DNA from: Tidjanibacter sp.
GTDB taxonomy: Bacteria > Bacteroidota > Bacteroidia > Bacteroidales > Rikenellaceae
DNA length: 64,000 nt
Direction of reading: 5' to 3'
Assembly (NCBI GenBank): GCA_045614965.1
Contig: JAZLDY010000029.1
Span: forward strand, 14,814 to 78,813
The notes below the pieces were generated by a model. That model did no database searches and was not told the origin of the DNA. It worked only from the letters and a program-made list of their open reading frames with translations. The position numbers were made by a program, and so were the translations under genes. Numbering within the stretch: the stretch's first letter is position 1; each line of letters starts with the position of its first letter. Below are positions 5,215 to 62,002 of this stretch, in pieces.

Positions 5215-6885
5215 TTAGAATGGGGGCTCGCCGTGTTCGGAGGGGTCGAAGGGGTTGTTGAAATAGATGTCGTCGGCCCTCAGTAGGCGGAATTGTTCTT
5301 TGAGCCTCTGGTCGAAGCTCTCGATATCTTTCTGCTCTCGTGCGGTCCAAGCGTTCTCCGCAAGGGCGATGATGCGAGGATAGACGAGGTAGTCCAATCG
5401 GTCGGGGGTGTCAACCCTTTCGGTCCACATATTGGCCTGAATACCAAGTATTTTACCGCCTTTGGAGAAGTCTACGTCAAACTCCGAGTAGTCCCAATCA
5501 TAGACCTTGCGGTAGGAGTTCACGCCAAACTTCTTCCAACCCACACCGTGCACTTGGAGCGAGTCTTGGGCGTAGTCGAAATACATAGGCAGACGGGGCG
5601 AGAATACAATGTTGTAGTTTTTCTCCACGGCCTTGCGAATCACCTCCACCCTATTGGGCCTCCACGCATAGATGATGGTCTTGTCGCTGGGCAGGTCAAG
5701 GCCTGCGAGTTCGTCCCACGCAGCAATGCGGTTGTTCATCTGGAAGAGTGAGTCGGCCACACGGTGGGCGAAATAGTGCTCCACGTCGAGGAAAGAGGAG
5801 AGGTTTTCACGCTTCATCAGAGCCTGAATGTCGGCATTGTCGTTCCATACGCTGTTGCCATCTCGGAGTTCGTCGCCACCGATGTGTATGGTTTGGAAGG
5901 GGAAGAGCGCATCGACCTCTTTGAGTATTCGGTTGATGAAATAATATAGCTCCTCTTTGCCGGGGTTGAGTGTGTAGTTGGGCTTGCGTGAGCCTTTTGC
6001 GCCGCCGCTAAATTCGGGATAGGCCTTGACCATTGCGGTAGCGTGTCCGGGCATATCAATCTCTGGGAGAATCTCGATGCCACGCTCGTAGGCGTAGGCC
6101 ACGATTTCACGCACTTCGTCCTGTGTGTAGTATTGAGCCGGTGCAAAGGGGTCTGTGTTGTGCCCAATGCCACCGATTAGAGCCAATTTGGGATAGGCTT
6201 TGATTTCCACTCTCCACCCCTGCTCGTCGGATAGGTGCCAATGCAGACGGTTGAGTTTGTAGAGGGCCATATAGTCGATGAGTTGTTTCACCTTCTGTTT
6301 GCCGAAGAAGTGCCTTGCCTCATCGAGCATAAAACCTCGCCAACCGAAGCGTGGCGAGTCGCTGATGTGCCAACCTTGCAGAGTGATTTTTTCGTCTTGT
6401 GGTTTGGCGTTGAGAGCGTCGTGATAGTAAAAGGGATTCCAAGTATCTCTGCTGATGTAACCCTTGGAGGTGTGATAGGCGAGCCTTGCGAGTTGCAGGA
6501 GCGACATTGTGGCGTTAATCATACCCTTGCGCTCGGAGGCTTGCAGGGTGATTACGCTGTTGTCGATGTGGAGAGCGTAGGCCTCCTCACCGAGTTTTTT
6601 TGCACGTTGTAGAACGATTCTCGTTCCCGAAAGCCCCTTGTGGGGGCCTTCGGGATTGAGAATGGGAGAGATACCACACTGCACCAAGAGTTCGCCTTGG
6701 AGCAACTGCGCTTGTGGCGCAAACTCTTCGTCGTAGAAGATTGCCGTGCGGTTGTCGAGTGTGAACGAAGCGTCCACAGCGACAGCCTCCACAGGTTTGG
6801 GAACGAGTGGACACTCGGTTGTTTGAGCAAAAGTTGCCGTTGCGAGCGTTGCTACTGCCAACAGCGAAAGGAGTTTGCGTATCAT
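5215..6885 (-). CDS. GH20 beta-N-acetylhexosaminidase
   Basis: PRFGWRGFMLDEARHF, LHWHLSDEQGWR, PEIDMPGHA, catalytic HIGGDE, GIQANMWTE. Confidence 0.96.
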   Translation of the reverse strand: MIRKLLSLLAVATLATATFAQTTECPLVPKPVEAVAVDASFTLDNRTAIFYDEEFAPQAQLLQGELLVQCGISPILNPEGPHKGLSGTRIVLQRAKKLGEEAYALHIDNSVITLQASERKGMINATMSLLQLARLAYHTSKGYISRDTWNPFYYHDALNAKPQDEKITLQGWHISDSPRFGWRGFMLDEARHFFGKQKVKQLIDYMALYKLNRLHWHLSDEQGWRVEIKAYPKLALIGGIGHNTDPFAPAQYYTQDEVREIVAYAYERGIEILPEIDMPGHATAMVKAYPEFSGGAKGSRKPNYTLNPGKEELYYFINRILKEVDALFPFQTIHIGGDELRDGNSVWNDNADIQALMKRENLSSFLDVEHYFAHRVADSLFQMNNRIAAWDELAGLDLPSDKTIIYAWRPNRVEVIRKAVEKNYNIVFSPRLPMYFDYAQDSLQVHGVGWKKFGVNSYRKVYDWDYSEFDVDFSKGGKILGIQANMWTERVDTPDRLDYLVYPRIIALAENAWTAREQKDIESFDQRLKEQFRLLRADDIYFNNPFDPSEHGEPPF

Positions 6886-6921: not shown

Positions 6922-8802
6922 TTAGAAAAGCTTCTGCGCACCTTTGTCCTTGTAGGCCTCGGTCTGCTCGAAGATACCTTTCTCAACGTCGATGGTCTTC
7001 AAGTAGGTACTTACGCTACCACTCTTGGCTACGTAAGTTTTGAGGGTTTGGTAAGGACCAGGTTGATTTCTGTTGAAATAATCAATGGAGTTGTTTGTAT
7101 CGGCAACGTTACCTGTAATTGTGTAGGGGAATTCGTCGCTATCTTCGGGTGAATCACCAATAAAACAAGTGCCTGTATTTGCTGTTGCACAGAAAATATT
7201 GTCTTTAGCAGTCAATGAGTTCATATCATAACTCAAGAATGTTTGAGGTCGGATATTGTAGAAGGTGTTGTTGTTGAGAGTAAAATCAGTTTGTTGTGTA
7301 CCACTTGTTGGTTTAACCTTGGTGGAAGACATAAGTTTGAGTTGTCCCACATTACCTGTGGAACTGTAAATAGCGTTATTTTCAAAGACAATCTCCTTAT
7401 AATCACTCCAATAAGGATTCGTTGCGAGATAACAGAAGTGCATCTCACGAGAGCCTGAAATCTCAATATGAGAGTTGACTATCTTTAAACTCTTGAAACC
7501 ACGATATGTAGCAGTAGACTGTGCAATAAAAGAATACTTAGAAGCACCTGAGAACTCAAACTTACAGTTGTCAAAATGCAAGTAGTCAACCACGTTGGTA
7601 GAGGATGTGTTGGAGAAGGTTCCAGAAGTATTGTCATCTATCAAGAAAGATATTCCTCGAATAGCCATACCACCACCTCCGAGTATTCGGAAATTCTTAT
7701 TACCGGCACTTGAATGAGTCATTGTTAATGACAGAACCTCATTGTCGTAGCGACTGCACAATAAGACATTTGCAGCAGCATCGGCCGTACCAATGTTCAT
7801 AAATGACCTTGAGAAGAATTTATAGTTGCCCACTTTGTCAAGGAAGAACACCAACTTGCCGGTCTTGTTATACAACTTGTCGAAGAGGTCGAAGTCTGCG
7901 CCATTGGTTTGGAGCAACTGACCGGCTACGCCAGTGGAGGCTTTGCTGTACTCAACGCCTGCGATGGTGATGGACTTGCCGGCCTCCCAGAGTTTCCAGT
8001 TGTCAATCCAGCCGTCAATAACGCCCAAGTTGCGCTGTTGGTTGCGGTCGAGGGCAATGGCACCCGACGAGTAAACCTCGCCCTGGTAGTCGGTCATAGC
8101 CTCGTCGCCATAGAGGGTGATGGTGTAGCCCTGCGAGAGGTTTACGCCCTGGGGAAGAGCAACGAAGTTCTCGCCCGTGGTGATGGGGATAACAATCTCG
8201 GTTGCCGAGCCTGTGGCCACAGTACCCACACCGGTTGCGGGGTCAACCTCAACGGTGGTACCAAATTTCTCACCATTCCTACCCTCCAATTTTGCATACT
8301 TCACAGCCTCCTTCTTCACGGTGAAGCGGAGCAGGTTGCTGGTGTTCTTGAAGACTGCGGGGGTTACGGGGTTGCTGATAGCAGCAACGCTGACAATCTG
8401 TTTGCCTGCGCTCTGGGTGATGGGGAAGTTGAGCACCACCTTGTCGCCGGCAGCGGCGTTCCACGCATCTGCGGGGGTTACAGCCACATAGGAGTCAGCC
8501 TCAGGGTCTACCTGTGCGCTGAACGTAACATTTGCACCATTCACCTCTTTGATGGTGGCATTCACATAGTTGGTACCGTCCCATACACCAATGGTGTCGT
8601 CGGCCTTCCAAGCCACAGCACCACCTGCGGAGGGAGTTGTGCGGACTACTGCGTCGAGCGAAGCGGTGAATACTACCTCGCTACCATTCACAGCGGGGCC
8701 GTTATTGTTGATATCGTCCATATTGTCGTTCTCGCAACCGACAAATGCAAAGGCTGCCACTGCGGCCAATGCCAAAGTATAAAGTTTTTTCATAGCGTTC
8801 AT
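6922..8802 (-). CDS. Surface lipoprotein; fimbrillin-like N-terminus, probable beta-helix C-terminus
   Basis: Lipobox FVGC; W-x-x-x-D-x-I-G-V-W motif; periodic F-x-N-C/N-x-(F/I) repeats in the C-terminal half. Confidence 0.7.
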   Translation of the reverse strand: MNAMKKLYTLALAAVAAFAFVGCENDNMDDINNNGPAVNGSEVVFTASLDAVVRTTPSAGGAVAWKADDTIGVWDGTNYVNATIKEVNGANVTFSAQVDPEADSYVAVTPADAWNAAAGDKVVLNFPITQSAGKQIVSVAAISNPVTPAVFKNTSNLLRFTVKKEAVKYAKLEGRNGEKFGTTVEVDPATGVGTVATGSATEIVIPITTGENFVALPQGVNLSQGYTITLYGDEAMTDYQGEVYSSGAIALDRNQQRNLGVIDGWIDNWKLWEAGKSITIAGVEYSKASTGVAGQLLQTNGADFDLFDKLYNKTGKLVFFLDKVGNYKFFSRSFMNIGTADAAANVLLCSRYDNEVLSLTMTHSSAGNKNFRILGGGGMAIRGISFLIDDNTSGTFSNTSSTNVVDYLHFDNCKFEFSGASKYSFIAQSTATYRGFKSLKIVNSHIEISGSREMHFCYLATNPYWSDYKEIVFENNAIYSSTGNVGQLKLMSSTKVKPTSGTQQTDFTLNNNTFYNIRPQTFLSYDMNSLTAKDNIFCATANTGTCFIGDSPEDSDEFPYTITGNVADTNNSIDYFNRNQPGPYQTLKTYVAKSGSVSTYLKTIDVEKGIFEQTEAYKDKGAQKLF

Positions 8803-8814
8803 TCTCCGTTTTTT

Positions 8815-8949
8815 TTAGTGTACCCAAATGTAGTCCTCTTCTTCGAAGTATTCAATCTCGGCCATAGTGTCGCTGATTGCGATACCTTCGTTCAGCTCAA
8901 CCTCCTCAACATAGAGGTCGGGGCTCTCATAAAGTCTTTTGGTTTTCAT
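8815..8949 (-). CDS. 44-aa acidic peptide MKTKRLYESPDLYVEEVELNEGIAISDTMAEIEYFEEEDYIWVH (below ORF-track cutoff)
   Basis: Translated by hand; A-rich initiation region; fills the operon gap; Y-x-x-P...E motif of small Bacteroidales proteins. Confidence 0.75.
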   Translation of the reverse strand: MKTKRLYESPDLYVEEVELNEGIAISDTMAEIEYFEEEDYIWVH

Positions 8950-9033
8950 AGAAAAAAGTTTTTGGTGTTTTGACGGCTATGGCCGACAACCATCAGATTG
9001 TCGGCCAACAGCCTCGGTTTTAGGGTTATTTGT

Positions 9034-11589
9034 TTATTGTTTTACTGTCAAACTTACGTCGTCGATGTTTACCTGGCACCTGATGGTTTTCAAGTTCGCA
9101 TCAAACTCGGGAGTCAGGGCGAAGAACAGGGCTGCATTCTTGAAGCTCTTACCGGGGTTGGCCTCGATAATCTTCGGAAGGTCGAGAGTCATTGTGTACT
9201 CCACCCACTCGTCTTTCTTCTCGATGGTGATGCTCTCCTCGTAGGTGTAGTCGGTATAGACATTAGCACCGGTGCTCGAAACAATACCTGCGGTGATGGT
9301 CTTGGCTCCATTATCCTTGTTCTGCCAAGTCTTCGAGGGCAGGTAGTACCAGAACTTCAAGGTGTAGGTCTTGGTGTCGTCCAACGAAATCTTCTGACCA
9401 GCACTCATCAGGTGGTGCATATTGTTATTGGTGTAGTGTTGGAAGTTGTCGAGCTCTGTCGAAAGGCGACCGTCGGTAGCATAGAGGCCCAACGACTGCT
9501 TGCCACCGTGGGCAACCGATGCGCCCGATGCGGTGTAGCCCATCTCGGGACCATCGATGTAGGCAAACCAGTGCCATCCGCCTGCAATGAAGCGCAGGAA
9601 CCATTGGCCCTCACCAACAATGGTGTTGGCAGCAAGGGTGGGGTGCGAAGTCTGGAAGGTGGGGTCGAAGAAGCTCTTCACACGGGGCAACTTCACTATC
9701 GAATTGGCGTGGAGTGCGGGGGCGGTGGAGGTAACCTCGGGGATGGTCTCGAAGTCGCCATTTGCAACGAGTACACCGGTCTGGCCCTCGTCATCGCCCT
9801 CGTCATCGCCACCTTCGGGTGTGTACTCGGGAATCACGTCCACCTTGTACTCTGCGGGCAGAGTTTTGTCGATTACGCTCTTGTGGTTCTCATAGAAGGT
9901 CTTGATGGCCTTCACGATGGCGTTGTTCTCATCCCAAGAGCTGCCGCCACCGCCAACGATGATAACACCATCGCAGTATTGCCACAAGTGCTCCAAACCT
10001 GCCAAGAAGGTCTCCTCCTTGATGGTCTGACCGCAACCCTCAAAGGTTTCGGGGTGGCTCTTGTCGCCGGTATAGGTGGTGCTAATCAGGGCATACACCT
10101 TCTTGGTGTTGTCGTTCCACATTGCCTCCTCAAACACCTGCAAGCAGTCGTTCCTCCAATAGTCGAGGTCGTCGTCAATCATATTCACAACGGGCACAAG
10201 CACGTCGGCATACTGACGCAATGCACGGGTGGGCTCAACAGCATACCTCAACCAGCTGTCCTTGCGGGCAAACTCGGTCTTGTAGTGATACTGACCCTGA
10301 ATCTGTGTAAGCGCAGTGGGGCCTACGCCTGCAAAGCCCAATACAGTCTCGCTATTGTTGGCCTTGAAGGTTTCGTTAATCTTGTCGAAGCGGTTTACCA
10401 TAATGATGTTGGCGCTGCTGCGGTCAACAATCCAACTACCCTGCGAGAATACGGTGAAGTTCTTCACGTTCTTTGCAACGTGGGCAATCTTGTCGTAGTC
10501 AGGCTCGTAGATGTCGTTGTAGATTTCGGGCACCGATACGTTGCGATACTCGATGTAGTTGATAGGCTGCATACCATAAGTGCGCATATCGGCGGGCTTG
10601 TTGGTGTATTTCATTCCATCATAGAGGGCAAACTCGCTGGGCTCACGAGGTTCGAGAGAGCTTGTCTTTGCCTCTTCGAGCACGATGTTGTCGTAGTGCC
10701 TATTGACGAGGTCTTTCACAGCACCATAGAACTCCTGCACCCTGGGGTCGTTCCAAGGCACTTCGCTCTTGCCGTCGGTATCTTTACCATTCGACCACAG
10801 GATGATACCATCGAGGTACTCATAGCAAGCCTCCAACATAATGTCGGCCTTCTCCTTGGTAACGAACTGCATATACTCGGGGTTGCTGGCGTGGTTGTAG
10901 TAGTTGGACCAAATGTAACCCACAATCTTCTTTTCGGGATAGTGCTGCCTGATGTAGGCAACGGTGGTCTTCAAGTCCTCAACCCACTGGTTCATATCCG
11001 AAGAGTAGGCATAGAGCGAAGGATACAACACGTCGCACACCTCACCAACGCCAATACGGCCCTCGTTGTTGTGCTTGGTCCAGCCGTCCAAAATTTCCTG
11101 TTCGCTCCAATCTTTCCTGTAACCACGATAGACGTTGAGGTTGCTCGCAGGTGCGCCATAGTTACCAATGGTACAATCGGGAATGGCCTCCTTGAACATA
11201 TTGAACACGATGCTCAACTGCTCCTTGATATAAGAGAAGTCTTTTTTGTCGTACCAGCACTCAATGTCAAGACTGATGGTCTTCACACCCGTCAGTTTGC
11301 AAATGTTGATTTGCTGTTTGATTTTGTCCATATCCAACTGCTCGTTGGTTACCAAGAAAGCCTCATAGATAAGACTGAAAGGCGAAATCATATCGCCTTG
11401 GAGTTCGGGCTTACCCTCGTGGAACAAACCATCATAGATGGTAAACTCCTTTTTGGTACCCGTGGGGCCGTCCTCGCCACCTTCGGGTACACGACCGGGG
11501 CCGTTGTTCGGCTCGGGGTCCTTACATCCTGCCAAAGCGAGAATCATCGCTGCGATGGCACTTAGCCATCTGAGATTCGTAAGTTTCAT
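9034..11589 (-). CDS. Lipoprotein with two GH56-like TIM-barrel domains and a C-terminal CBM-like domain
   Basis: Lipobox LAGC; domain 1 has SLDIECW, GNYGAP, DVLYPSLY, DGIILW; domain 2 is degenerate; C-terminal NGDFE...W...IDDVSL. Confidence 0.65.
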   Translation of the reverse strand: MKLTNLRWLSAIAAMILALAGCKDPEPNNGPGRVPEGGEDGPTGTKKEFTIYDGLFHEGKPELQGDMISPFSLIYEAFLVTNEQLDMDKIKQQINICKLTGVKTISLDIECWYDKKDFSYIKEQLSIVFNMFKEAIPDCTIGNYGAPASNLNVYRGYRKDWSEQEILDGWTKHNNEGRIGVGEVCDVLYPSLYAYSSDMNQWVEDLKTTVAYIRQHYPEKKIVGYIWSNYYNHASNPEYMQFVTKEKADIMLEACYEYLDGIILWSNGKDTDGKSEVPWNDPRVQEFYGAVKDLVNRHYDNIVLEEAKTSSLEPREPSEFALYDGMKYTNKPADMRTYGMQPINYIEYRNVSVPEIYNDIYEPDYDKIAHVAKNVKNFTVFSQGSWIVDRSSANIIMVNRFDKINETFKANNSETVLGFAGVGPTALTQIQGQYHYKTEFARKDSWLRYAVEPTRALRQYADVLVPVVNMIDDDLDYWRNDCLQVFEEAMWNDNTKKVYALISTTYTGDKSHPETFEGCGQTIKEETFLAGLEHLWQYCDGVIIVGGGGSSWDENNAIVKAIKTFYENHKSVIDKTLPAEYKVDVIPEYTPEGGDDEGDDEGQTGVLVANGDFETIPEVTSTAPALHANSIVKLPRVKSFFDPTFQTSHPTLAANTIVGEGQWFLRFIAGGWHWFAYIDGPEMGYTASGASVAHGGKQSLGLYATDGRLSTELDNFQHYTNNNMHHLMSAGQKISLDDTKTYTLKFWYYLPSKTWQNKDNGAKTITAGIVSSTGANVYTDYTYEESITIEKKDEWVEYTMTLDLPKIIEANPGKSFKNAALFFALTPEFDANLKTIRCQVNIDDVSLTVKQ

Positions 11590-11618
11590 TGGTTTTGTTG
11601 TTTTTGGTAATTAGTTGA

Positions 11619-12506
11619 TTATTTGTTTGTGTCCAATTCTATGTTTTTGTAGTGGTTTGCCACAAAGGTTCTAATGGCCCGTTCGATGCCCTGAATACGC
11701 TCGTCCTGCCACTCAATCTTGGGGCTGTCGTAGTCCCTGTGGCTGCGACCGTGGGCCCAGAGTACCACTCCGTCGAGATATTTATAGGAGGCCTCCAACA
11801 TTGCAAGGAAGTTCTCCTCGCTGATGACCTGCATATAATACGGGTTGGTCTTCCAGTCGTAATACTGTGGCCACAGGTAGCCCACAATCTCCTTGTCGGG
11901 GTAGTGCTCCCTGATGTACTCAACGGTGGTTGCGAGGTCTTTCTCCCACTGCTCCACGTCGGGGGTCATCGCATAGAAGCAGGGATACAACACATCGCAC
12001 ACCTCGCCGGCAGGCAGTCGGTTGTTATCTCTCTTCCAACGTGCAATCTTCTCCTCCTCGGTGGTGTCCTTCATAGTCTCCACATAGCGGAGAATGCAAA
12101 GGGAGCCGATGGGTACGCCATAGTTGCCGAGCCTTGCGCCCGGAATCTCCGCCTTGAATGCGTCAAAGACCTCTTTGAGTCCCTCCTTGACGTAGCCTTC
12201 CGAGCGGCCATTGCTTGCCCAGTACCACGACTCGATGTCGGTACACACGGCCAACACGCCACTCTCTTTGGCTTTGGCTACGGCTTTGGCCACCTTCTCG
12301 TGGTCAATCTCGTCGTTGGTCAGCAGGCTCGACTCATAGAAGAGTTCTATGGGCGAGAGTTTCAACTCCGAAAGGTCGGGTTTGCCGGGATATTTGAGTC
12401 GGTCGTAGATGTGAAACGGCTTGTCTCGCAGGGGCTCCTGCTCCACACACGAGGCCGCACACATCACCACGAGGCCCAATATCAACGTTCTAACTATCTT
12501 TTTCAT
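11619..12506 (-). CDS. Lipoprotein, single GH56-like glycoside hydrolase domain
   Basis: Lipobox AASC; TDIESW, GNYGVP, DVLYPCFY, DGVVLW. Confidence 0.65.
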   Translation of the reverse strand: MKKIVRTLILGLVVMCAASCVEQEPLRDKPFHIYDRLKYPGKPDLSELKLSPIELFYESSLLTNDEIDHEKVAKAVAKAKESGVLAVCTDIESWYWASNGRSEGYVKEGLKEVFDAFKAEIPGARLGNYGVPIGSLCILRYVETMKDTTEEEKIARWKRDNNRLPAGEVCDVLYPCFYAMTPDVEQWEKDLATTVEYIREHYPDKEIVGYLWPQYYDWKTNPYYMQVISEENFLAMLEASYKYLDGVVLWAHGRSHRDYDSPKIEWQDERIQGIERAIRTFVANHYKNIELDTNK

Positions 12507-12542: not shown

Positions 12543-14051
12543 TTAGTAACCGGGGTTGTTCTGCCAGCCACGCAATTGGCACTGCCTTGCGGGGATGGGG
12601 AAGAGGTAGTTCTGGTAGTTTACGTTCAGGCGTGCGTCAACGTCGGGGTTTTTGCTCACCATCTCATCAACCTTCTCTGTCCTGACAAGTTGGAACCAAC
12701 GCTTAAACTCAAAGACATTCTCCCAGCCATACTCGTCAAAGACGGCCTTCTCAAATGCCTCAGGCGAGAGGCCCGAGAGTTGTTGGTGGGGGATGTCGCC
12801 AAAGGCCCTATCACGCACCTGGTTGATGCAGTCGTAGGCGAGTTGGCTCACTTGGCCCGTACCCGTAGCCTTCACGCTTGCCTCGGCATAGAGGAGAAGA
12901 ACATCGGCATAGCGATACACGGGAGTGATACCCTCCGAGAGTTGACTCTTCGTGCTGGTGTCGCCCTCGATGCCGTACTTTCCGCAACCACCAAAGTTGC
13001 GATACTTGCGAATGTAGGGAGCCTTGGGACCGAAGTTCTGCCAAGTGATGGTCTGCTTGGTGTCTTTGTGAATCGTTTCGGTTGTGAAGCAGAACTCTTT
13101 GCGCTTGTCGTTGGGATAGTTTGCAAAGAAGACGGGGTCTGCTGCATAGTCCGACCAACCGTCCTCCTCGTAGCCGAGGTAGGAGATTGCATATTGGCTG
13201 GGCAGATAGGAGAGCGAGTGGTGGAGAGTGAAGATGTGCTCGGTTTTGTCGTAGCAACTGCTCTTCAACCACAGGGTTTTGTACTCCTTCACGAGGCTGT
13301 GTGGGCCCTCGTCGATGACCTTTTTCAGCACCTCGGCAGCCGCAGCATATTTGTCGGTCTGTTTGAGAGGCCAGCCTGCCATATGCATATACACGTCGCC
13401 CAACACTGTTCTTGCAGCCCACTTGGTGGGGGCCTGTCCCCTCTCATCACGGCTGGTTGCGGGCAAGAGATTGATGGCCTCCAAGAGGTCGGGAACGATG
13501 ATGCGCTCATAGATGTCTTTGGTGCTCACACGAGGCATTGCATCGTTGCCATTGATGTCGCTACCCGAAGATGCATCAACGGGAGCAGGAGCATCGCCCC
13601 ACATCCTTACGACGTAGAAATACATCAGAGCCCTCATAAAGAGTGCCTCGCCGAGATAGATGTCGCTCTTGTCTGCGCTCAGCGTTGTGTTGTTATCGAT
13701 GAGCGAGATGATGTTGTTGGCATTGAAGATTGTGGCATAGAAATGTTTCCACAAGGGGGCAATGTCGAGGTTGTTAGCAGGCACCCTCATTTGGTCGTCT
13801 TCCACCAGACGACTCTTGGCTGCGTCGCCCGCAATCATATCATCACCGGCAAGGAGCAGCGATGCCATTCGGCAGTTGAAACCGAAGTTCTCGCCCCACC
13901 AGCTCTGGTAGAGTCCGTTAGCATTATTTTCGAGTGTTTGCTCCGTTACGGGCAGTGTTTGGTCGGTGAGGCTACTCTGCGGTTCTTGCAGAAGGTCCAC
14001 ACACGAGGTAAGTGCCACGAGAGCGAATAGGATAAATATCTGTTTTTTCAT
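12543..14051 (-). CDS. susD: SusD/RagB family lipoprotein
   Basis: Lipobox LTSC; GEALFMRALMYFYVVRMWG, YRYADVLLLYAEA, FEFKRWFQLVR, LFPIP. Confidence 0.95.
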   Translation of the reverse strand: MKKQIFILFALVALTSCVDLLQEPQSSLTDQTLPVTEQTLENNANGLYQSWWGENFGFNCRMASLLLAGDDMIAGDAAKSRLVEDDQMRVPANNLDIAPLWKHFYATIFNANNIISLIDNNTTLSADKSDIYLGEALFMRALMYFYVVRMWGDAPAPVDASSGSDINGNDAMPRVSTKDIYERIIVPDLLEAINLLPATSRDERGQAPTKWAARTVLGDVYMHMAGWPLKQTDKYAAAAEVLKKVIDEGPHSLVKEYKTLWLKSSCYDKTEHIFTLHHSLSYLPSQYAISYLGYEEDGWSDYAADPVFFANYPNDKRKEFCFTTETIHKDTKQTITWQNFGPKAPYIRKYRNFGGCGKYGIEGDTSTKSQLSEGITPVYRYADVLLLYAEASVKATGTGQVSQLAYDCINQVRDRAFGDIPHQQLSGLSPEAFEKAVFDEYGWENVFEFKRWFQLVRTEKVDEMVSKNPDVDARLNVNYQNYLFPIPARQCQLRGWQNNPGY

Positions 14052-14064: not shown

Positions 14065-17000
14065 TTAGAAGGTTAGATTTACACCGAAGATGAAGCCGGT
14101 TTGTGCGGGATAGGTACCTGCATCAAGACCGGGACGGAGAGGATTGCTGATAGCCATCTCAGGGTCGTTACCGGAGTAGCCCGTAAAGGTGGCGAGGTTT
14201 TTGGCCGAGAGGTAAACCCTTGCGGCGCTCATACCAAGTTTTTTCAGCATATCGCTTGTGAGGTTATAGCCCAGAGTGATGCTCTTGATTTTCACAAAGT
14301 CGCCCTTTTCTACGAATGTGGACGAAGCCACCTGCTCATAGGAGGTGATAGCATCACGATTGGGACCGAAGCTTGCAATCTTCGCATCCTCGTTGGTGGT
14401 CTGTACCCACCTGTCGGCCAATGCGGGGGTGGGGGCGAGCTGGCTGGTAAGCCTTGCTGCGGGGTAGTTGTAGATGTCGAAACCGTGGTAGCCAATCAGG
14501 AAGATGTTGAGGTCAAAGTTCTTCCATTGGAGGCTGTTGTTCAAGCCCCAGTTGAATTTGGGCTGACCGTTACCGATGATAACGTAGTCATCGGCATCGA
14601 TAATCTTGTTGTCGTCGGTGTCGTAGTAGCGGTAGGCACCGGGACGAACTTTGGGGAAGACCTTGTCGGCTTGCAGTTCGGGGTTATTGAAGTCCTCTGT
14701 GCTCCACACGCCCAACGATTTCAGACCATAGATGGAGCCGATAGGTTGTCCCTCGTAGTAGCGGTAGAAGGCGTTGCCCCAACCGGTGCCGAGTTCCATA
14801 TAGTCCGATTCAATGTCGCCAAGCTCCACAATCACAGCCTCGTTGTGTGCAAGTGTCAGGTCGGCCTTCCAGAAGAAGTCTTTGGTGTTCACGGGGATAA
14901 CGCCCAGGGTGGCCTCAAAACCTTTGTTGTTGATGGTTGCAGCATTACGCAAGCCCGAGGAACGGCCCATATCGTCGGGCAGAATCACGGTGTTGATTGC
15001 GTTGGCCGTAGTCTTGTCGTAGTAGTCGGCATTGAGGGTAACCCTACCGCCAAACAGCGAGAGGTCCAAACCGAGGTTGTGTTGGCTGGTCTTCTCCCAA
15101 CGGAGGTTGGGGTTGCCTATGTTGAGCGAATAGACGGTGCCGTTGTTACCAATGGTTGCGTTGTAGGTGGAGAATGCCGAGTAGGCAGCCACTGCTTGGT
15201 TACCCGACACACCATAGCCATAACGCAGTTTGAGTTGGTCGAGGGCCTCGACGTTCTCCATAAAGGACTCTTCTTTGATGTTCCACGCTGCACTGAACGA
15301 GGGGAAGGTGTCCCACCTGTGCTGGTAGGCCAACAGCGACGAGCCGTCCCTACGAATGGTGGCGGTCAGCATATAGCGGTTCATCAACACATAGTTCACA
15401 CGGCCGAAATATGAGATTGCCGTGGAACGACTAACGCTCTGCTCGGTGATTTTGCTCAACTCGGAGAGCATCAGGTTTTTCCAACCAATCTGGGTGGAGG
15501 TCATACCCTCGGCCGAGAGTCCGAGTTTGAGAGTATTGCTAAGGCTCTGCTCCGCACCGATGGTGGCGTTGATACGGTGGTTTTCGTTGAACTCTTTGGT
15601 GTAGTTCAGGGTGGTTGTCATCCTCCAACCCCACGAGTTGGTGTCGGTGTAGGTTGCCTGCGACTTGCCTTTGAGAAGGCCCTGATAACTGAGTTCGCTG
15701 CTGGTGGTACCCACATAGGAGTTGGAAATGCTCAACTGCTGCTCGTTGCGGAAAGTGAGGCCCGGCAACACCTCCCAATTCAAATAGGCCTGAATCCAGT
15801 TGTTGAAGCCCTGATTGAGGTTGTTGTTGCGTTTCTGCTCGTCAATGAAGACCATTGGGTTGGTCATATTCGAGTTGGAGATGGTACCCGATGTGGGCTT
15901 CGAGTAGTCGAGGATTACCTGCTCGTTCTCGTCATACAACACGTTTCCATTCTCGTCCTTCATTGTTTCGTAGGGGAGGACGGTCTGTGGGAACTCCTGT
16001 GCAAGAGTGAGGATACTCGACGAGCCGGAGAAACCATTGGTTGTGGAGTCGTACATACGGCCCGAGAAGTTGGCACCAATGGAGAGTTTTTTCGACAAGT
16101 CGGAGTCGATTTTCAGACGATAGTTGAGGTTGTCGTGCTGTGAGATGCCGATGATACCCTCGTTGTGGGTGTATTGTGCGGAGAAGAGATACCTCATCTT
16201 CTCGCTCGAACCCTTGATGCTCACATCGTGCGACTGACTGAGGGCATAGTCGTTTACGATTGCGCCCATATAGTCAAACAGGTCGTAGCCATTGACAAAG
16301 TTGGTGATTTGGTTTTGTGTGTAAAGGCTCTTCTTGTAGAAGGTGCGATACCACTCGTTGGCCATATTGGCAAACTCGCCCACCTCCATAATTTCGGGCA
16401 GGTCGCTTGCCACACCCACATTCACATAGCCATTGTAGTCCACCGACACTTTGTTGTCGGAGGGGGTTTTGGTTGTGATGAGGATTACACCATTAGCACC
16501 CCTCGAACCATAGATGGCCGTGGAGGAGGCATCTTTGAGGATTTCGATGGATTTGATGTCGGAGGGGCTCACCGAGTTGAGGTTGCCACCGGGGAAGCCG
16601 TCGATAACCACCAGTGGACCACCGTCGGCTTTGATGGAGTTCACACCCCTGACACGCATTGTGGGGGCCGAGCCTGCTGCACCGGAGGAGTTCACAATGT
16701 TAAGACCTGCAACCCTGCCCTGCAACATATCGCCCACCTGACTTGCGGGCATCTTTTTGAGGGTCTCTTCGGCATTGATGGAGGCCACAGCACCCGTAAG
16801 GTCGCTCTTGCGCTGTACGCCATAGCCCACAACCACAATCTCCTCCAACGACTCTGCGTCTTCTTTCAACACAACGTCGATGGTTGTGCGGTTGGCCACA
16901 TTGACTTCTTGGGTGGCCATACCCATATAGGAGAAGATGAGTACATCGTTAGCCTTGGCACTGATGGTGTAGGAGCCATCCAGGCCGGTAACGGTACCAA

Positions 17001-17160
17001 CTCCGTAGTTGCTTTTCAACACGACCGAGACACCCAAGATGGGCTCTCCTGCCGAGTTTTTCACCACGCCACCAACATTCACTTGCGCAAACAAGCTACC
17101 CGTTAGTGTGCAGATTGCCAACAAAAGGGTGGCAAATCTGGCAGTCCATTGCTGTTTCAT
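14065..17160 (-). CDS. susC: SusC/RagA TonB-dependent transporter
   Basis: EIVVVGYG, IEILKDASSTAIYGSRGANGVILITTK, NPNLRWEK, C-terminal GVNLTF. Confidence 0.97.
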   Translation of the reverse strand: MKQQWTARFATLLLAICTLTGSLFAQVNVGGVVKNSAGEPILGVSVVLKSNYGVGTVTGLDGSYTISAKANDVLIFSYMGMATQEVNVANRTTIDVVLKEDAESLEEIVVVGYGVQRKSDLTGAVASINAEETLKKMPASQVGDMLQGRVAGLNIVNSSGAAGSAPTMRVRGVNSIKADGGPLVVIDGFPGGNLNSVSPSDIKSIEILKDASSTAIYGSRGANGVILITTKTPSDNKVSVDYNGYVNVGVASDLPEIMEVGEFANMANEWYRTFYKKSLYTQNQITNFVNGYDLFDYMGAIVNDYALSQSHDVSIKGSSEKMRYLFSAQYTHNEGIIGISQHDNLNYRLKIDSDLSKKLSIGANFSGRMYDSTTNGFSGSSSILTLAQEFPQTVLPYETMKDENGNVLYDENEQVILDYSKPTSGTISNSNMTNPMVFIDEQKRNNNLNQGFNNWIQAYLNWEVLPGLTFRNEQQLSISNSYVGTTSSELSYQGLLKGKSQATYTDTNSWGWRMTTTLNYTKEFNENHRINATIGAEQSLSNTLKLGLSAEGMTSTQIGWKNLMLSELSKITEQSVSRSTAISYFGRVNYVLMNRYMLTATIRRDGSSLLAYQHRWDTFPSFSAAWNIKEESFMENVEALDQLKLRYGYGVSGNQAVAAYSAFSTYNATIGNNGTVYSLNIGNPNLRWEKTSQHNLGLDLSLFGGRVTLNADYYDKTTANAINTVILPDDMGRSSGLRNAATINNKGFEATLGVIPVNTKDFFWKADLTLAHNEAVIVELGDIESDYMELGTGWGNAFYRYYEGQPIGSIYGLKSLGVWSTEDFNNPELQADKVFPKVRPGAYRYYDTDDNKIIDADDYVIIGNGQPKFNWGLNNSLQWKNFDLNIFLIGYHGFDIYNYPAARLTSQLAPTPALADRWVQTTNEDAKIASFGPNRDAITSYEQVASSTFVEKGDFVKIKSITLGYNLTSDMLKKLGMSAARVYLSAKNLATFTGYSGNDPEMAISNPLRPGLDAGTYPAQTGFIFGVNLTF

Positions 17161-17533: not shown

Positions 17534-18994
17534 ATGACTAAACGTACCTATTTATTATTATGCCTGCTGTTGACAACAATGGGGGCGATGGCTCAACTCT
17601 CCCTGCCCAACGTGTTTGACGACGATATGGTGCTGCAACAAGGCAAGAGGGTTTGTGTGTGGGGCGAGGCTCGCCCTACTGCAAAAGTCAGTGTTTCGTT
17701 TGCAGGACAGAGGGTCGCAACGGTGGCCGATGCGGAGGGTCGGTGGCGACTCTATTTGGACGAGATGACCGCCTCGGCCGAGCCACGCACGCTGGTTGTT
17801 AGTAGCGGTAAGGAGAAGAAGGTATATAAGAATGTGCTTGTGGGCGAGGTGTGGCTCGCTTCGGGCCAGAGCAATATGGAGTACTCTATGGGTAACCACA
17901 ACCACTATCCCCGCCCTGCACGAGGCGATAGGGATGTGTTGATGAAGGCCCACTATGAGGCCAATGATGCGCTTGTGAGGGTGCTCTATGTGAGCCGCAA
18001 TATGAGTGTCGATACCCTGCCCACAACGGGTTGGCACACTGTGGGTTACGAGTCGTTGAAGCCCGTGTCGGCTGCCGGCTATTTCTTTGCCAAAGAGTTG
18101 GCCGACAGCCTGAAAGTGCCCATCGGTCTCATCTCCTCGTCGTGGGGAGGTACACCCGTGGAGGAGTGGACTCCGAGGGAGGCTTTCGAGAAGTCGCAAT
18201 TTGGCAAGGATGTGGACTCCAAGGGCTTCTATGGCAATGTGAAGGTGGCTTGGCGTTACGACCACCTTATCGCCCCTATGGTGCCCTACACCCTGCGTGG
18301 TTTTTTGTGGTACAATGGTGAGCAGAATCTTATGACGGGCGACACGGACATCTATGCCGACAAGCAGATGTTGATGGTGGATGCGTGGCGTGAGGTGTGG
18401 GGCGACGAGCAGATGCCATTCTACTATGTGCAACTTGCCCCCTATGCCTACTCCCACAGGCGCACCCTCGCCACCCCTTTAACTTGGGCAACCCTTCCCC
18501 TCTTCTGGGAGGCCCAAAAGAGGGCTCTTGCGCAACCCCATACGGGTATGGTGTCAACCTTTGACCTCGTGGATGACGTGTCCGAAATACACCCTCCCTA
18601 CAAATGGATTGTGGGTAGTCGTTTGGCAAAAATGGCTCTTGCAAGGAGCTATGGTTTTGAGAATATCGAGCCGGAAGGCCCTGTGTTTAAGGGATATACC
18701 ATCGAGGGCGACCAAGTGGTTGTGGAGTTCGACAATGTGAGTGGCGGGCTGAAAACCTCCGACTCCTCCACTGCTCCCACCTTCTTCTGCCTGGCCGGGG
18801 CCGATGGGCGTTTCTTCCCTGCGGAGGCCAAGATTATCAGCCCCACAAAGATAGCGTTGACCAGCACAAGGGTAAAGGCTTCAAGGGTGGTGGATGTTTG
18901 CTTCGGTTGGGACGAAGAGTCGGGCCACAATTTGCACGGTGGCAACGGCCTGCCTGCACAACCCTTCAACACCCTCTTTATGCGACAGCAGTAG
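17534..18994 (+). CDS. Sialate O-acetylesterase family (SASA) protein
   Basis: GEVWLASGQSNM, WGGT, GFLWYNGEQN, IHPPYK. Confidence 0.92.
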   Translation: MTKRTYLLLCLLLTTMGAMAQLSLPNVFDDDMVLQQGKRVCVWGEARPTAKVSVSFAGQRVATVADAEGRWRLYLDEMTASAEPRTLVVSSGKEKKVYKNVLVGEVWLASGQSNMEYSMGNHNHYPRPARGDRDVLMKAHYEANDALVRVLYVSRNMSVDTLPTTGWHTVGYESLKPVSAAGYFFAKELADSLKVPIGLISSSWGGTPVEEWTPREAFEKSQFGKDVDSKGFYGNVKVAWRYDHLIAPMVPYTLRGFLWYNGEQNLMTGDTDIYADKQMLMVDAWREVWGDEQMPFYYVQLAPYAYSHRRTLATPLTWATLPLFWEAQKRALAQPHTGMVSTFDLVDDVSEIHPPYKWIVGSRLAKMALARSYGFENIEPEGPVFKGYTIEGDQVVVEFDNVSGGLKTSDSSTAPTFFCLAGADGRFFPAEAKIISPTKIALTSTRVKASRVVDVCFGWDEESGHNLHGGNGLPAQPFNTLFMRQQ

Positions 18995-51859: not shown

Positions 51860-54130
51860 CTAACTCTCAATAATCTTCTTTGCATCGGGGGCCACCACAA
51901 AGGGGAGGGCTTCGAGGGTGGGCCTATACTTGATGTGAAGTTCCCTCACCACCTCAATCTCGTCGGCCGAAGGCTCGGTGGGGTAGCACTCCTTGCCGAA
52001 GGTCCACTCCCATTCCCACACTTTGCTCTCCTCCTCAAAGGCCTTTTGGTCGAAGGGTTTGCCCTCGGTCATCGCACTTCTCACGGCCGCAAAGAAACGC
52101 TCCCAGCGGGGGATGTAGAAGCCACCCACCATACCCGACCATTGGCGGCAGGCGTAGTCCCTGATGCGGCAATCTTTGTTACCCCAAGTGGTAAGCAAAT
52201 TTCGTGCATTTTGCTCATACACTGCCTTCTCGCTTTGGGTGTGTCCCATCGCTTTGGCATCCTCCAACCACCTTCCGAGCAAGAACTCCTTGCGTGAGGA
52301 TAGCAGACGCTCGAAGTCGCAAAGGTAGGATAAATAGTTGGCCACTGCAACATCCAAGGCCTCCACACTGCCACTCTCGTAGGCCTTTGCGCAGGCTTGT
52401 TGCAACACGGTGGCGTGGTTGGCCATCACCTGACGGGTGATATCTACAAGGTCGTAGCGGTAGCCCTCGCTGTCGGCAAAGCGGTCGGCACACTCCACCA
52501 ACAAGTCCCACGCCTCGGCGAGTTCCATCTGGTCGTAGTGGAGTTTGACGTTGGTTGTTCCGCCGGGGTTGAGTTTGAAGGAGGGACGGCCGGTGATGAT
52601 GGATTCGGGGCCTCCGTTGGTAACATCGTTGTTATAGACACTCTCGGTGATGATGCTCCACGCCTTTTCGGCACGCTCATCACGCTCTCCATACCTCTCT
52701 TCGAGGTAGTCGGTGGTGAATGCCTCAATATCAATGGGCTCACTCCTCCACACATTCTCCAACATCATCGCAAACATCAGGGGGTTGTGTTCGATGCCCT
52801 CGGGTGTGAGTCCAATGCCACAGAACTCTCCCGAACGTGGGGAGGCGAGTGCGGCTGCGGGCCCTGCGGCCACACGGGCGGAGTTGCCCGAAAGGGTGAT
52901 GTTTTGGCCGAAGTTGTGGAGCATACACCATATCCAAGGCTTACCGTAATATGCCTCGGTGCGCTGCCATACGGGGAAACGCTCGCTCCACAGGTCGAGG
53001 ATAATCATACCGTCGTTGGGCACAGCACCCAGCAGGGCTTTGATTTCGGGCTCGCCCCAGAAGTCGTCGGAGTGGTGGAACAACCAACCCTGCATTACCC
53101 ACACAGCCTCGCTGTCGGCGGCTCTCATCGACTCGAAGACCTTGCGACTCATACCGGCAAGGTAGGCCGAGTCGGTGCTTGGTGGGTCGTTTTCGTTGAA
53201 TGTGTCGGCCGAGTAGAGGTGGTTGGTGCCATAGAGTGCGGCCTGCTCACGGATGAACATCTCGCCAATGGTGTCGAACATCTCCTCCTCGGGGTCCATA
53301 ACGGCCACTTCGGGGAAGTTCACCCACGAGGTTTTGCGCACCTTCACATCGGGGAATTTATGCTCAAAGGCGGGCGGAACGTGGCCCGTGAAGGCGGGTA
53401 GCACGGGGGTCATACCGAGTGCTCGCTCGCTGCGAAGGATGAATTTTTGTAGCCTTTCGTGCTGACGGAAGAACCTCTGTGGCAGCGGACCACCCCAACC
53501 GTCGAGGTTGCCCATCCAAAACCAGTTGAAATAGGCCGGGCCGCTGAAAAAACTTTCGAGTTCTTTGTCCGTAAAGCCCAACTTCTTATAGACCCTCTGC
53601 CACACGGAGTTTTGGCCCGTAACGGCCAAGGGCATATTGATACCGTTGAGAGCCATAAAGTCTATCTCCCACTGCCAACGCTCCTTGTCCCACCAACTCA
53701 TCGTGTAGTTGAAGGTGCAGTAGTTGAAGCAGTAGCGATACTTGTAGGGGGTTGTTTTGACCACCCTCTCGGTGGGTAGGGGTAACTCTTCGGGGAGTTC
53801 CACATTGGAGCCACACCAACTGATGTGGCAACCACACCACTCTTGGAGGTAGTGGTTCAGTGCGCTTGCCACGCCCACACCGTCGCCACCTTCGAGGACA
53901 ACCCTACCATCCTCGGCCCAGAGCGCAAAGTAGTCGTGTCCGTTGAGCTGCTTCTCGGTGATGACCACCTTGAAATCGCTCTGTCGTCCGCCCGTAACCC
54001 TCCCAACGAGGGCCTCGGCAGCCTTGGTTTGTTCGTCGAGCGAAAAGATGGTTTGGGTGGCATCGGGGCTGCAACTGCTCCCCACGATAAGGGCCAGAAT
54101 GGTGGCAATGATTATGGCGTATCTCTTCAT
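51860..54130 (-). CDS. GH89 alpha-N-acetylglucosaminidase (lipoprotein)
   Basis: NYCTFNYTMSWW, IDFMALNGIN, MGNLDGWGGPL, DTFNE, LHNFG, TPEGIEHN. Confidence 0.96.
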   Translation of the reverse strand: MKRYAIIIATILALIVGSSCSPDATQTIFSLDEQTKAAEALVGRVTGGRQSDFKVVITEKQLNGHDYFALWAEDGRVVLEGGDGVGVASALNHYLQEWCGCHISWCGSNVELPEELPLPTERVVKTTPYKYRYCFNYCTFNYTMSWWDKERWQWEIDFMALNGINMPLAVTGQNSVWQRVYKKLGFTDKELESFFSGPAYFNWFWMGNLDGWGGPLPQRFFRQHERLQKFILRSERALGMTPVLPAFTGHVPPAFEHKFPDVKVRKTSWVNFPEVAVMDPEEEMFDTIGEMFIREQAALYGTNHLYSADTFNENDPPSTDSAYLAGMSRKVFESMRAADSEAVWVMQGWLFHHSDDFWGEPEIKALLGAVPNDGMIILDLWSERFPVWQRTEAYYGKPWIWCMLHNFGQNITLSGNSARVAAGPAAALASPRSGEFCGIGLTPEGIEHNPLMFAMMLENVWRSEPIDIEAFTTDYLEERYGERDERAEKAWSIITESVYNNDVTNGGPESIITGRPSFKLNPGGTTNVKLHYDQMELAEAWDLLVECADRFADSEGYRYDLVDITRQVMANHATVLQQACAKAYESGSVEALDVAVANYLSYLCDFERLLSSRKEFLLGRWLEDAKAMGHTQSEKAVYEQNARNLLTTWGNKDCRIRDYACRQWSGMVGGFYIPRWERFFAAVRSAMTEGKPFDQKAFEEESKVWEWEWTFGKECYPTEPSADEIEVVRELHIKYRPTLEALPFVVAPDAKKIIES

Positions 54131-54141
54131 ATTTCAGTGTG

Positions 54142-56301: not shown

Positions 56302-56413
56302 CGTTTTTTGGGATTTTGTGGGTTAAAAAGTGTGGTTTTTTGAGAAAAAAGAAAACTTTGCCGATGCGGAGTGTTTGTCTCCCCGCACCGGCAAAGTAGT
56401 TGGTTATGAGTGC

Positions 56414-57694
56414 TTATTTAGCAACAATCATCTGGCTCTTGATGTTCAAGTAGCAGGGTTTGAGATAGAGTTGCTCCGACAATGTTGCATCAAGATATTT
56501 CTTGCCGGTAGCCTCATCGGTTACAAATGCAGCCGAATCATCAGGCAACTGAACAATCTGGATAATACCATAGCTGAAAGGCACACCCTCTTTTGCAGTG
56601 CGGGGGCTGCGAATAATGAGGTAGTCGCCTGCACGGAAGTTCTCGGTAAGAGGCTTAGCCATTGAAGTGTGGCCAGCAGAGCCCCAACGACGATACATAT
56701 TCTTGTTGCTCAACGAGGTAGGCTCGTTCTCAACTCCGAGGGTGCTGTTGTCGAGTACCCTCTGGATCTCACCCAACTGATAGTGTGCCCTCATCTGGTC
56801 TGCCAATGTCTTAATCTCCTCGGGAATAGCCATAAACAGACTGTCAACAAATTTATACTCATCCTCATCGTAATTTGTACCATCCCACGAACCAACAATA
56901 CGGCTCATACCAACTTCGTCTGCGATGGCTTTGTCGAGGAAGTGCTCGCCATACTTTGCAACATCGCACTGACGACCAATAGTACCGGCATTAAGCCTCT
57001 CGATAGTACAGAACATATAACCCCTTTCACTTCCGAATACAACGTTGTTGGAGGTGTTCATAAGAGCGTTGCAGAAGCAGAGCGAACCCTCTTTACCATT
57101 AGTGGGAAGAAGCTCGTTGAGCGAAACGATGTGTTTCAAGGTGCCATTTACGTTCACACCATGCATCGAAATGAACGAAGGAGTGTCGCTACCTGCACCG
57201 GTGTTCTCATCGGGATAGAGCTCGGGGTTGTTCTCGTGGTTGTCAATCTTCTTGTCGGCCATAATGGTTGCAGTGGGCTCGCACCAAGCACCATAGTTCC
57301 ACTCGCCCTCAACTGCGCCAAGTGCGTAGTAGAAAGCAGCGGCTTTGTTACCGGCAACAACTTTAACCTCAACGTGGGTAGCCTCTTTGGTGTCGGCAAA
57401 CCAGAGCTGGTCAACCTCTGTACCCTCCTGTTCGAGAGTCTGTGCGCTACCTTTGGCAACATAGCTCTCGCCACTCTTAGCAACACCGGTCAGAACAACC
57501 TCGGTGAGTGCTACACTCGAAGTACCTTTGATTGCGATGGGCGAACCATAGGCTACACCCTCGGCGATAGCAGCCTCAACACCCTCGGCGAGTGTGAGAG
57601 TTGCTTCGAGTTTGTCCTGGCCACCTTCGGACTCCTTGTCGCAAGCCACCAGTGCTACTGCCAGCATTGCAATTGCAAATAAAGTTTTTTTCAT
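56414..57694 (-). CDS. Surface lipoprotein of unknown function (SGBP-like)
   Basis: Lipobox LVAC; located inside PUL-2; no catalytic motif recognised. Confidence 0.65.
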   Translation of the reverse strand: MKKTLFAIAMLAVALVACDKESEGGQDKLEATLTLAEGVEAAIAEGVAYGSPIAIKGTSSVALTEVVLTGVAKSGESYVAKGSAQTLEQEGTEVDQLWFADTKEATHVEVKVVAGNKAAAFYYALGAVEGEWNYGAWCEPTATIMADKKIDNHENNPELYPDENTGAGSDTPSFISMHGVNVNGTLKHIVSLNELLPTNGKEGSLCFCNALMNTSNNVVFGSERGYMFCTIERLNAGTIGRQCDVAKYGEHFLDKAIADEVGMSRIVGSWDGTNYDEDEYKFVDSLFMAIPEEIKTLADQMRAHYQLGEIQRVLDNSTLGVENEPTSLSNKNMYRRWGSAGHTSMAKPLTENFRAGDYLIIRSPRTAKEGVPFSYGIIQIVQLPDDSAAFVTDEATGKKYLDATLSEQLYLKPCYLNIKSQMIVAK

Positions 57695-57772
57695 AGCAAA
57701 TAATGTTTTAGAAAAAAGGTTAATAAATAAAGTTGTTAATAGGTTTGTTTTGTTTGGTTTATGTTGTTTGGT

Positions 57773-58540: not shown

Positions 58541-58549
58541 ATCCGTTGG

Positions 58550-59380: not shown

Positions 59381-59395
59381 ATCTTCTCGTAGGTC

Positions 59396-60199: not shown

Positions 60200-60259
60200 A
60201 CTCATTTCCGTTTGTTGGTTACGGATGAAATGTTGTTTTTTGGTTACTCTCACTCCTCA

Positions 60260-61948: not shown

Positions 61949-62002
61949 AGCGTTCTGTCTTGTTTCGTTTGTTCTACACTTTGTTGTCCATTACTTCTCC
62001 TC

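Follow-up and report, generated by a model that had tools for sequence, protein, structure and literature searches.

A 64,000-nucleotide (nt) stretch of DNA from Tidjanibacter sp. (assembly GCA_045614965.1, contig JAZLDY010000029.1, positions 14,814 to 78,813 of the forward strand; here called the window, whose own numbering is used below) contains a polysaccharide utilization locus (PUL) that encodes three copies of a barrel domain resembling glycoside hydrolase family 56 (GH56). Two adjacent minus-strand open reading frames (ORFs) account for these copies. The first (positions 11619 to 12506) encodes a lipoprotein of 295 amino acids (aa) with a single GH56-like (beta/alpha)7 barrel, which is predicted to be active from its AlphaFold2 (AF2) model and invariant residues. 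The second (positions 9034 to 11589) encodes an 851-aa lipoprotein whose ORF and AF2 model give the layout lipobox, flexible tether, barrel 1, barrel 2, acidic linker, and a domain resembling a carbohydrate-binding module (CBM). The analysis itself shows homology, which residues are kept or lost, the domain architecture, and the recurring gene context. We consider it probable that the 295-aa protein and barrel 1 are retaining, substrate-assisted endo-beta-N-acetylhexosaminidases and that barrel 2 is a derived, noncatalytic partner, all within a SusC/SusD-type PUL.

Three related barrels and their link to GH56

In BLASTP comparisons, the 295-aa protein matched residues 47 to 308 of the 851-aa protein (barrel 1; positions 10666 to 11451, minus strand) at 44% identity (E value of 2e-72) and residues 318 to 570, within barrel 2 (residues 318 to 578; positions 9856 to 10638, minus strand), at 24% identity (E value of 5e-10), both well above what chance would give. 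A preliminary description of this DNA had likewise counted three barrel copies. It had also pointed to DNA similarity between positions 11870 to 11960 and 10910 to 11000; these segments lie inside a longer match, in which positions 10850 to 11046 and 11812 to 12008 are 71% identical over 197 nt at an offset of 962. The genome carries only these three barrel copies. The AF2 models of both proteins show seven strand/helix units per barrel, with a predicted local distance difference test (pLDDT) score of 90.4 for the 295-aa protein and about 90 for barrel 1. The barrel domains have isoelectric points (pI) of 4.8 to 5.0.

Four motifs recur in the two predicted active barrels, as had been read from the sequence at the outset (D-I-E-x-W, G-N-Y-G-x-P, L-Y-P-x-x-Y, and D-G-x-x-L-W). 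In the 295-aa protein, these are DIESW (residues 90 to 94; positions 12225 to 12239, minus strand), GNYG (127 to 130), LYPCFY (173 to 178), and DGVVLW (245 to 250); in barrel 1, they are DIECW (108 to 112; positions 11254 to 11268), GNYG (142 to 145), LYPSLY (188 to 193), and DGIILW (260 to 265). Together, the motifs hold the five residues reported as strictly conserved for catalysis and substrate positioning in GH56, namely, Glu131, Asp129, Tyr202, Tyr247, and Trp321 (PMC13080975). By profile-profile alignment, D90, E92, Y129, Y178, and W250 of the 295-aa protein correspond to D129, E131, Y202, Y247, and W321 of vertebrate HYAL1. The Y129/Y202, Y178/Y247, and W250/W321 pairings sit in the confident part of the alignment, and D90 and E92 fall on D129 and E131 both at default hhalign settings and in an extended alignment. 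All five residues are invariant across the close clade, which comprises Bacteroidales, Neisseria, and Pasteurellaceae sequences, and the equivalent D-E-Y-Y-W set of barrel 1 (including D108 and E110) is intact in all but one of the 24 tandem proteins.

The connection to GH56 was followed through bacterial relatives. In an exhaustive phmmer search of 5.8 billion proteins, the 295-aa protein retrieved 508 cluster representatives at an E value of ≤0.001, mostly exported and about 290 aa long. Two of them, P0067 (3.5e-13) and P0069 (2e-6), were reached directly; P0069, named "Hyaluronidase" by JGI, itself clears the Pfam GH56 cutoff (29.5 versus 23.2 bits). Among 106 diverse relatives, 33 matched PF01630 at an E value of ≤0.01 (best, 2.3e-12), and no other glycosidase family in Pfam was found. 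When a profile of these 106 relatives was run against the PDB, the top three matches were the bee (1fcq; 2e-9), wasp (2atm; 5e-6), and human HYAL1 (2pe4; 0.02) enzymes, with unrelated proteins beginning at an E value of 0.033; another profile of relatives (A1) matched only 1fcq and 2atm. A vertebrate HYAL1 profile was made with the catalytic region of human HYAL1 (identical to 2pe4_A over 351 residues), and hhalign aligned the relatives' profile to it with 95% probability (E value of 3e-8; 133 columns). The close clade alone aligned with 75% probability (E value of 2.6e-5; 177 columns), placing DIESW on D129-W-E131-A-W133.

Judged on sequence profiles, the GH56 link of the barrels is real, being strong through intermediates and moderate directly. 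The barrels are an outlying branch of a large group of bacterial GH56 relatives, about a third of whose members already reach the Pfam GH56 threshold. What the preliminary description observed is thus confirmed throughout, and its interpretation is largely right, but the proposal of an unclassified family needs narrowing to a distant branch of the GH56 superfamily. GH56 enzymes have a (beta/alpha)7 fold and a substrate-assisted mechanism (PMC12254123). By analogy, the Glu of D-x-E-x-W would serve as acid/base with Asp as its partner, while the two Tyr residues and the Trp would hold the 2-acetamido group. The 295-aa protein and barrel 1 would then carry out substrate-assisted catalysis with N-acetylhexosamine (HexNAc) in subsite -1.

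Polysaccharide utilization locus and possible substrate

In the ORF list of the window, the two barrel genes belong to a head-to-tail run of six minus-strand genes. The run opens with a SusC-like TonB-dependent transporter (positions 14065 to 17160; Pfam Plug, TonB_dep_Rec_b-barrel, and CarbopepD_reg_2) and a SusD-like protein (12543 to 14051; SusD_RagB and SusD-like_3). The 295-aa and 851-aa proteins follow, and the run ends with a 626-aa lipoprotein (6922 to 8802) and a GH20 exo-beta-N-acetylhexosaminidase with an ordinary signal peptide (5215 to 6885; Pfam Glyco_hydro_20, 1e-102; PDB GH20 matches down to 8e-79). A SusC/SusD pair together with a GH20 enzyme, all on the minus strand, marks the locus as a PUL. 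A SASA-type carbohydrate esterase (17534 to 18994, plus strand; Pfam SASA, 2.6e-16) is divergently transcribed; it was not found beside the orthologous PULs examined. The gut-type PUL setting given in the preliminary description is borne out by SusC/SusD upstream, GH20 downstream, and this divergent esterase.

Lipobox cysteines read from the sequence are Cys20 in the 295-aa protein (AASC), Cys22 in the 851-aa protein, and Cys23 in the 626-aa lipoprotein. In the 851-aa protein, about 25 acidic, disordered residues extend past the lipid-anchored Cys (pLDDT of <50 over residues 19 to 45). Acidic disordered tethers after a lipid-anchored Cys are typical of surface-exposed Bacteroidota lipoproteins. 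Both barrel proteins are predicted outer-membrane lipoproteins, and because of its long acidic tether, the 851-aa protein is expected to work at the cell surface. The resulting glycan fragments would enter through SusC/SusD, and the 295-aa enzyme and GH20 would finish them to HexNAc, feeding NagA/NagB. From these data we infer not only this cellular location but also the enzyme activity itself and the binding role assigned to barrel 2.

The 626-aa lipoprotein is a PUL core member without a recognized family, with no match in Pfam, NCBIfam, or the PDB. Its homologues in orthologous PULs (33 to 41% identity) lie within the PUL cores of three distant loci, and it may be a glycan-binding protein of the cell surface or an enzyme. 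The lipoprotein is acidic, and the sole hint of its identity comes from one homologue, which matches DUF5123 faintly.

A core made up of SusC, SusD, the tandem protein, the single-barrel protein, the 626-aa homologue, and GH20 was found again in metagenomic contigs, where the tandem proteins share 39 to 45% identity with that of the window. It is present in four other loci, one of them a shorter version. NagA- and NagB-type genes lie directly upstream in two loci, and another locus has a stand-alone single-barrel gene that is overlapped by a nagA-like gene. In one orthologous PUL (L001/L002, positions 8898 to 9839), an IS200-type Y1 transposase gene lies between the GH20 and single-barrel genes. 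The PUL product is most likely N-acetylglucosamine (GlcNAc), and the minimal core suggests a polymer whose breakdown GH20 can complete unaided. The genome (1.92 Mb, 99.8% complete) yielded no GH18; the control, Bacteroides thetaiotaomicron, yielded one. For the GH20 and SusD proteins, the closest PDB relatives were uninformative on substrate.

Our preferred substrate, albeit a tentative one, is a mainly neutral polymer rich in GlcNAc (chitin-like or a different beta-GlcNAc glycan), because the core needs only GH20, NagA/NagB recur, GH18 is lacking, and all domains are acidic. Hyaluronan or chondroitin is a somewhat less likely substrate, and a bacterial capsule or exopolysaccharide or a host N- or O-glycan takes up the remaining probability.

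Some features of the context pull away from this simple picture. GH32, GFO/IDH/MocA oxidoreductases, and a DLH/GCE-type esterase recur near the PULs of other genomes, with GH29 and fructokinase each found once; all are absent from the window. The GH32, GH29, GFO/IDH/MocA, and esterase neighbors are hints of a more complex substrate. The recurrence of this set of genes could reflect a branched substrate or merely inherited synteny. In addition, the genome encodes UxaC, GH88, and NagB outside the locus. Given UxaC and GH88, uronate-containing substrates may still be used, and an attempt to exclude glycosaminoglycan (GAG) use from genome content failed on the presence of the same two enzymes.

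The strongest competing explanation, which we nonetheless regard as unlikely, is that the barrels are true hyaluronidases or chondroitin hydrolases that provide a hydrolytic, nonlyase route to host GAGs or GAG-like capsules. GH56 hyaluronidases are the only detectable relatives of known function, every named carrier (Tidjanibacter, Cryptobacteroides, commensal Neisseria, and Pasteurellaceae) is host associated, and the uronate isomerase and GH88 genes could serve such a route. However, no polysaccharide lyase, GH88, beta-glucuronidase, or sulfatase is encoded in the core of the five PUL versions, and the recurrent neighbors are NagA/NagB rather than uronate genes. Reviews describe positively charged residues in the GH56 binding cleft, Arg and Lys occupying its plus subsites (PMC12254123, PMC13080975), whereas the domains studied here have a pI of about 5. 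Judged by sequence, without mapping onto the cleft, no conserved basic cluster stands out among their invariant residues, the invariant basic residues of the close clade being K42, R140, K205, and R270. The GAG angle of the preliminary description is thus not favored by context, since the core has neither glucuronidase nor lyase, the neighbors are of the NagA/NagB type, and the domains are acidic.

A second PUL-like cluster occupies positions 51860 to 64000 of the window. It encodes two GH89 (NAGLU) alpha-N-acetylglucosaminidases, two Exo_endo_phos proteins, and a SusD-like protein; a truncated upstream ORF is probably SusC.

Barrel 2 as a predicted noncatalytic partner

Barrel 2 has lost the GH56-type catalytic set. 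SQGSW (residues 382 to 386; positions 10432 to 10446, minus strand) stands where the other barrels have DIE(S/C)W, so that S382 and G384 occupy the Asp and Glu positions, and A420, N469, and V545 occupy the Tyr, Tyr, and Trp positions. All five GH56 positions are replaced in barrel 2 of 24/24 tandem proteins (down to 30% identity), and the replacements vary between orthologues. The disabled motif first noticed in this one protein is therefore a property of all 24 orthologues and extends to the whole residue set.

Despite this loss, barrel 2 is overall as conserved as barrel 1. It has an invariant set of its own (W386, D389, R390, G423-P424-T425, D444-S445-W446, D473, D474, and Y506), and most of these residues follow predicted strands, which by sequence place is the side on which TIM barrels carry their active sites. 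A maximum-likelihood tree groups every barrel-2 sequence into a single clade (Shimodaira-Hasegawa-like approximate likelihood ratio test support of 96), sister to a clade of barrel 1, single-barrel Bacteroidales, and Neisseria-type proteins. Because the barrel-2 sequences are monophyletic, the duplication and the catalytic loss in barrel 2 each happened once. These events are older than the split from relatives whose C-terminal extension, by eye, resembles a type IX secretion system (T9SS) sorting domain, and the barrel has been kept since. Such retention would be expected of a noncatalytic binding or scaffolding module.

Downstream of barrel 2, residues 579 to 630 (positions 9700 to 9855, minus strand) form an acidic, disordered linker with 13 Asp or Glu residues in 52 (pI of 4.05; pLDDT of <50 over residues 592 to 630). 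The C-terminal domain (residues 631 to 851; positions 9037 to 9699, minus strand) is a CBM4/9-like beta-sandwich. Its match to Pfam CBM_4_9 is below threshold (E value of 0.011; 16.6 bits versus a cutoff of 25.9), and Foldseek aligned its model (pLDDT of 60 to 90) to the CBM4 structure 1gui with an E value of 5e-6 and a template modeling (TM) score of 0.63 on the target. These results agree with the SQGSW, acidic linker, and CBM-like domain originally read from the translation. A search with the 851-aa protein returned 22 orthologues at an E value of ≤0.001, mostly with the same architecture. Barrel 2 would thus be the product of an old internal duplication that lost five residues and kept a different conserved surface under selection. 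Together with the CBM4-like domain on its flexible acidic linker, it would bind or position glycans without cutting them.

Alternatively, barrel 2 may be a neofunctionalized catalytic domain (for example, using D389 with D473/D474), making the 851-aa protein an enzyme of two activities. The conservation of barrel 2, the predicted placement of its invariant residues on the usual active-site side, and its unbroken retention in all orthologues, from before the T9SS-bearing relatives diverged, would all suit this proposal. However, we found no known catalytic motif and no family or structure match to another activity, and sugar binding would explain the conserved aromatic and polar residues just as well. 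We therefore judge a second activity improbable and retain the noncatalytic reading of barrel 2.

Two further observations concern tandem proteins more broadly. A metagenomic relative, P0072 (775 aa), has three barrels, the first of which is degenerate at the five positions (N-D-Y-F-S), while a further C-terminal barrel carries DVEDW. The degenerate first barrel indicates that the catalytic set was lost more than once in the wider family. Separately, identity to the 851-aa protein varies by domain among Tidjanibacter orthologues: it is 97% for barrel 1, 83% for barrel 2, and 65% for the CBM in P0218 but 73%, 80%, and 93%, respectively, in P0217. Comparison of P0217 to P0221 suggests domain-wise recombination among these orthologues, with at least two CBM variants circulating.

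Fold evidence, distribution, and relation to known systems

Several results speak against a GH56 identity for the barrels. Neither the 295-aa nor the 851-aa protein matched PF01630 when scanned against Pfam-A (hmmscan, E value of ≤0.1), so that direct matching places neither window protein in GH56, and their barrels had no match in NCBIfam or, by phmmer, in the PDB. A profile of the N-terminal half alone did not find GH56, and a profile of the close clade alone retrieved nothing from the PDB by hmmsearch; distant bacterial intermediates or profile-profile comparison are thus needed to see the link. Foldseek searches of the PDB with both AF2 models returned no GH56 structure in the top 50 matches, which were TIM barrels of GH164, GH5, GH26, GH18, GH2, Cwp19, and Sph3 at TM scores of 0.3 to 0.5. 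The seven units per modeled barrel fit the (beta/alpha)7 fold reported for GH56 (PMC12254123), though this fold search did not single that family out. Because Foldseek gave generic TIM barrels, the GH56 link is one of sequence profiles. The fold comparison of AlphaFold models proposed as a check in the preliminary description neither confirmed nor refuted GH56, and its GH56-like barrels stand on profile homology and the five residues but not on fold.

That the resemblance is convergent or spurious, with the barrels being generic small TIM barrels of another clan or nonglycosidases, would accord with these fold results and with the silence of the close-clade and N-terminal profiles, but we consider it very improbable, because GH56 chains were the top three in the PDB-wide profile search, a third of the relatives themselves reach PF01630, the five proven GH56 residues are invariant and in the right order, and TM scores of just 0.3 to 0.5 reflect generic barrel similarity. 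A GH18- or GH85-type endo-beta-N-acetylglucosaminidase (ENGase) identity was also considered and was rejected for want of a model match and of the DxxDxDxE motif.

The barrel family is patchily distributed. A sample of 150 further genomes of the same family contained no relatives, nor did 400 genomes sampled across the phylum. The two nearest genomes of the same genus (aspartokinase identity of 96 to 98%) carry the locus, while five at about 85% do not. In two of these five, the PUL and esterase are absent beside the aspartokinase gene, where synteny breaks; as a result, a search for the empty site gave no clean insertion boundary. Named carriers include Tidjanibacter metagenome-assembled genomes (from yak cecum, sheep colon, and feces), "Candidatus Cryptobacteroides," and rumen Bacteroidales. 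Sphingobacterium tabacisoli has the barrel inside an 817-aa protein, in a different PUL. Proteobacterial carriers comprise many commensal Neisseria as well as Aggregatibacter, Actinobacillus, Rodentibacter, and Exercitatus. The Neisseria and Aggregatibacter homologue gene adjoins rml (dTDP-rhamnose) and glycosyltransferase genes. This pattern indicates lateral spread among host-associated bacteria, and its reach into commensal Neisseria and into Pasteurellaceae suggests a mucosal substrate in common. The single-barrel loci of Neisseria perflava and Aggregatibacter actinomycetemcomitans also have a GtrA-like gene nearby, and in the Neisseria locus a 938-aa protein without a family match comes after.

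Reviews ascribe GH56 to mammals and venoms, as a family of hyaluronidases (PMC11669647, PMC12254123). In the literature searched, whose coverage was incomplete, we found no characterized bacterial GH56 member, and bacterial "GH56" in genome papers there amounts to annotation counts. The GH56 superfamily itself is already known; what is new here is a PUL-borne, tandem active/inactive GH56-like lipoprotein architecture with a CBM. In this conserved gut PUL, no enzymes other than those of the far bacterial branch are predicted to be endo-acting, and therefore both substrate and role can be tested by recombinant assay. If active, they would be a new type of enzyme for the harvest by Bacteroidales of HexNAc-rich glycans from host, fungal, or bacterial sources and would offer compact, disulfide-free enzymes of the hyaluronidase fold for study. 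They would also provide a clear natural case of a catalytic barrel turned into a fused noncatalytic partner. More speculatively, the clade could be a functionally new, GH56-derived group of bacterial endo-beta-N-acetylhexosaminidases that replaces GH18 enzymes or lyases as the surface endo-enzyme of a PUL, either as a GH56-type chitinase/ENGase or as a hydrolytic GAG or capsule depolymerase. In this scenario, which we advance only tentatively, the enzyme would be joined in cis to an ancient glycan-binding barrel of enzymatic origin, and exchange would have carried it between Bacteroidales of the gut and Neisseria and Pasteurellaceae of mucosal sites. The "animal" hyaluronidase fold would then have a large, older bacterial radiation with different substrates.

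Compared with the animal and venom GH56 enzymes (HYAL1, 2PE4; PH-20, 9JUB; bee, 1FCQ; wasp, 2ATM; PF01630), the predicted active barrels show profile homology over the C-terminal 130 to 180 residues. They share the five key residues in order and identity, in the motifs D-x-E-x-W, G-x-Y-G-x-P, L-Y-P-S-x-Y, and D/A-G-V-V-L-W. A seven-unit beta/alpha barrel is predicted, and the mechanism is presumed to be retaining and substrate assisted, with HexNAc at subsite -1. In contrast, identity in the aligned part is about 19%, and the bacterial barrel, at about 260 residues versus about 330, lacks an insert of roughly 30 to 40 residues after DxE, the disulfides, and the EGF-like tail. The animal enzymes also have no counterpart to the lipoprotein in a SusC/SusD locus, the tandem of an active and an inactive barrel with a CBM, or the acidic domains. 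The ez-CAZy survey lists 29 characterized single-domain GH56 proteins and places GH56 among the families of only single-domain proteins.

The uncharacterized bacterial PF01630-positive proteins (Planctomycetota, Acidobacteriota, Gemmatimonadota, and others), whose "Hyaluronidase" label is a pipeline annotation, share a bacterial superfamily with the barrels. They are about 290 aa long and secreted, carry the same motifs, and are within direct reach of phmmer. They differ in sharing 20 to 27% identity, in being single-domain proteins, and in not carrying a CBM-fused, inactive partner. GH18 chitinases and endo-beta-N-acetylglucosaminidases, like GH20 enzymes, resemble the barrels in their TIM-barrel fold, D-x-E or D-E pair, and substrate assistance on GlcNAc; GH18 EndoE and a chitinase were among the Foldseek matches. 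In known PULs for chitin and N-glycans, the corresponding endo function belongs to GH18. Unlike GH18 and GH20, however, the barrels match neither Pfam family, lack DxxDxDxE, and have seven units rather than eight. Finally, barrel 2 recalls dead glycosidase-fold binders such as the GH18 chitinase-like lectins, in that it keeps the fold and a conserved cleft-side surface without the acid/base and acetamido-positioning residues. What sets barrel 2 apart from those lectins is that it shares one polypeptide with a predicted active copy and a CBM; its binding role is putative.

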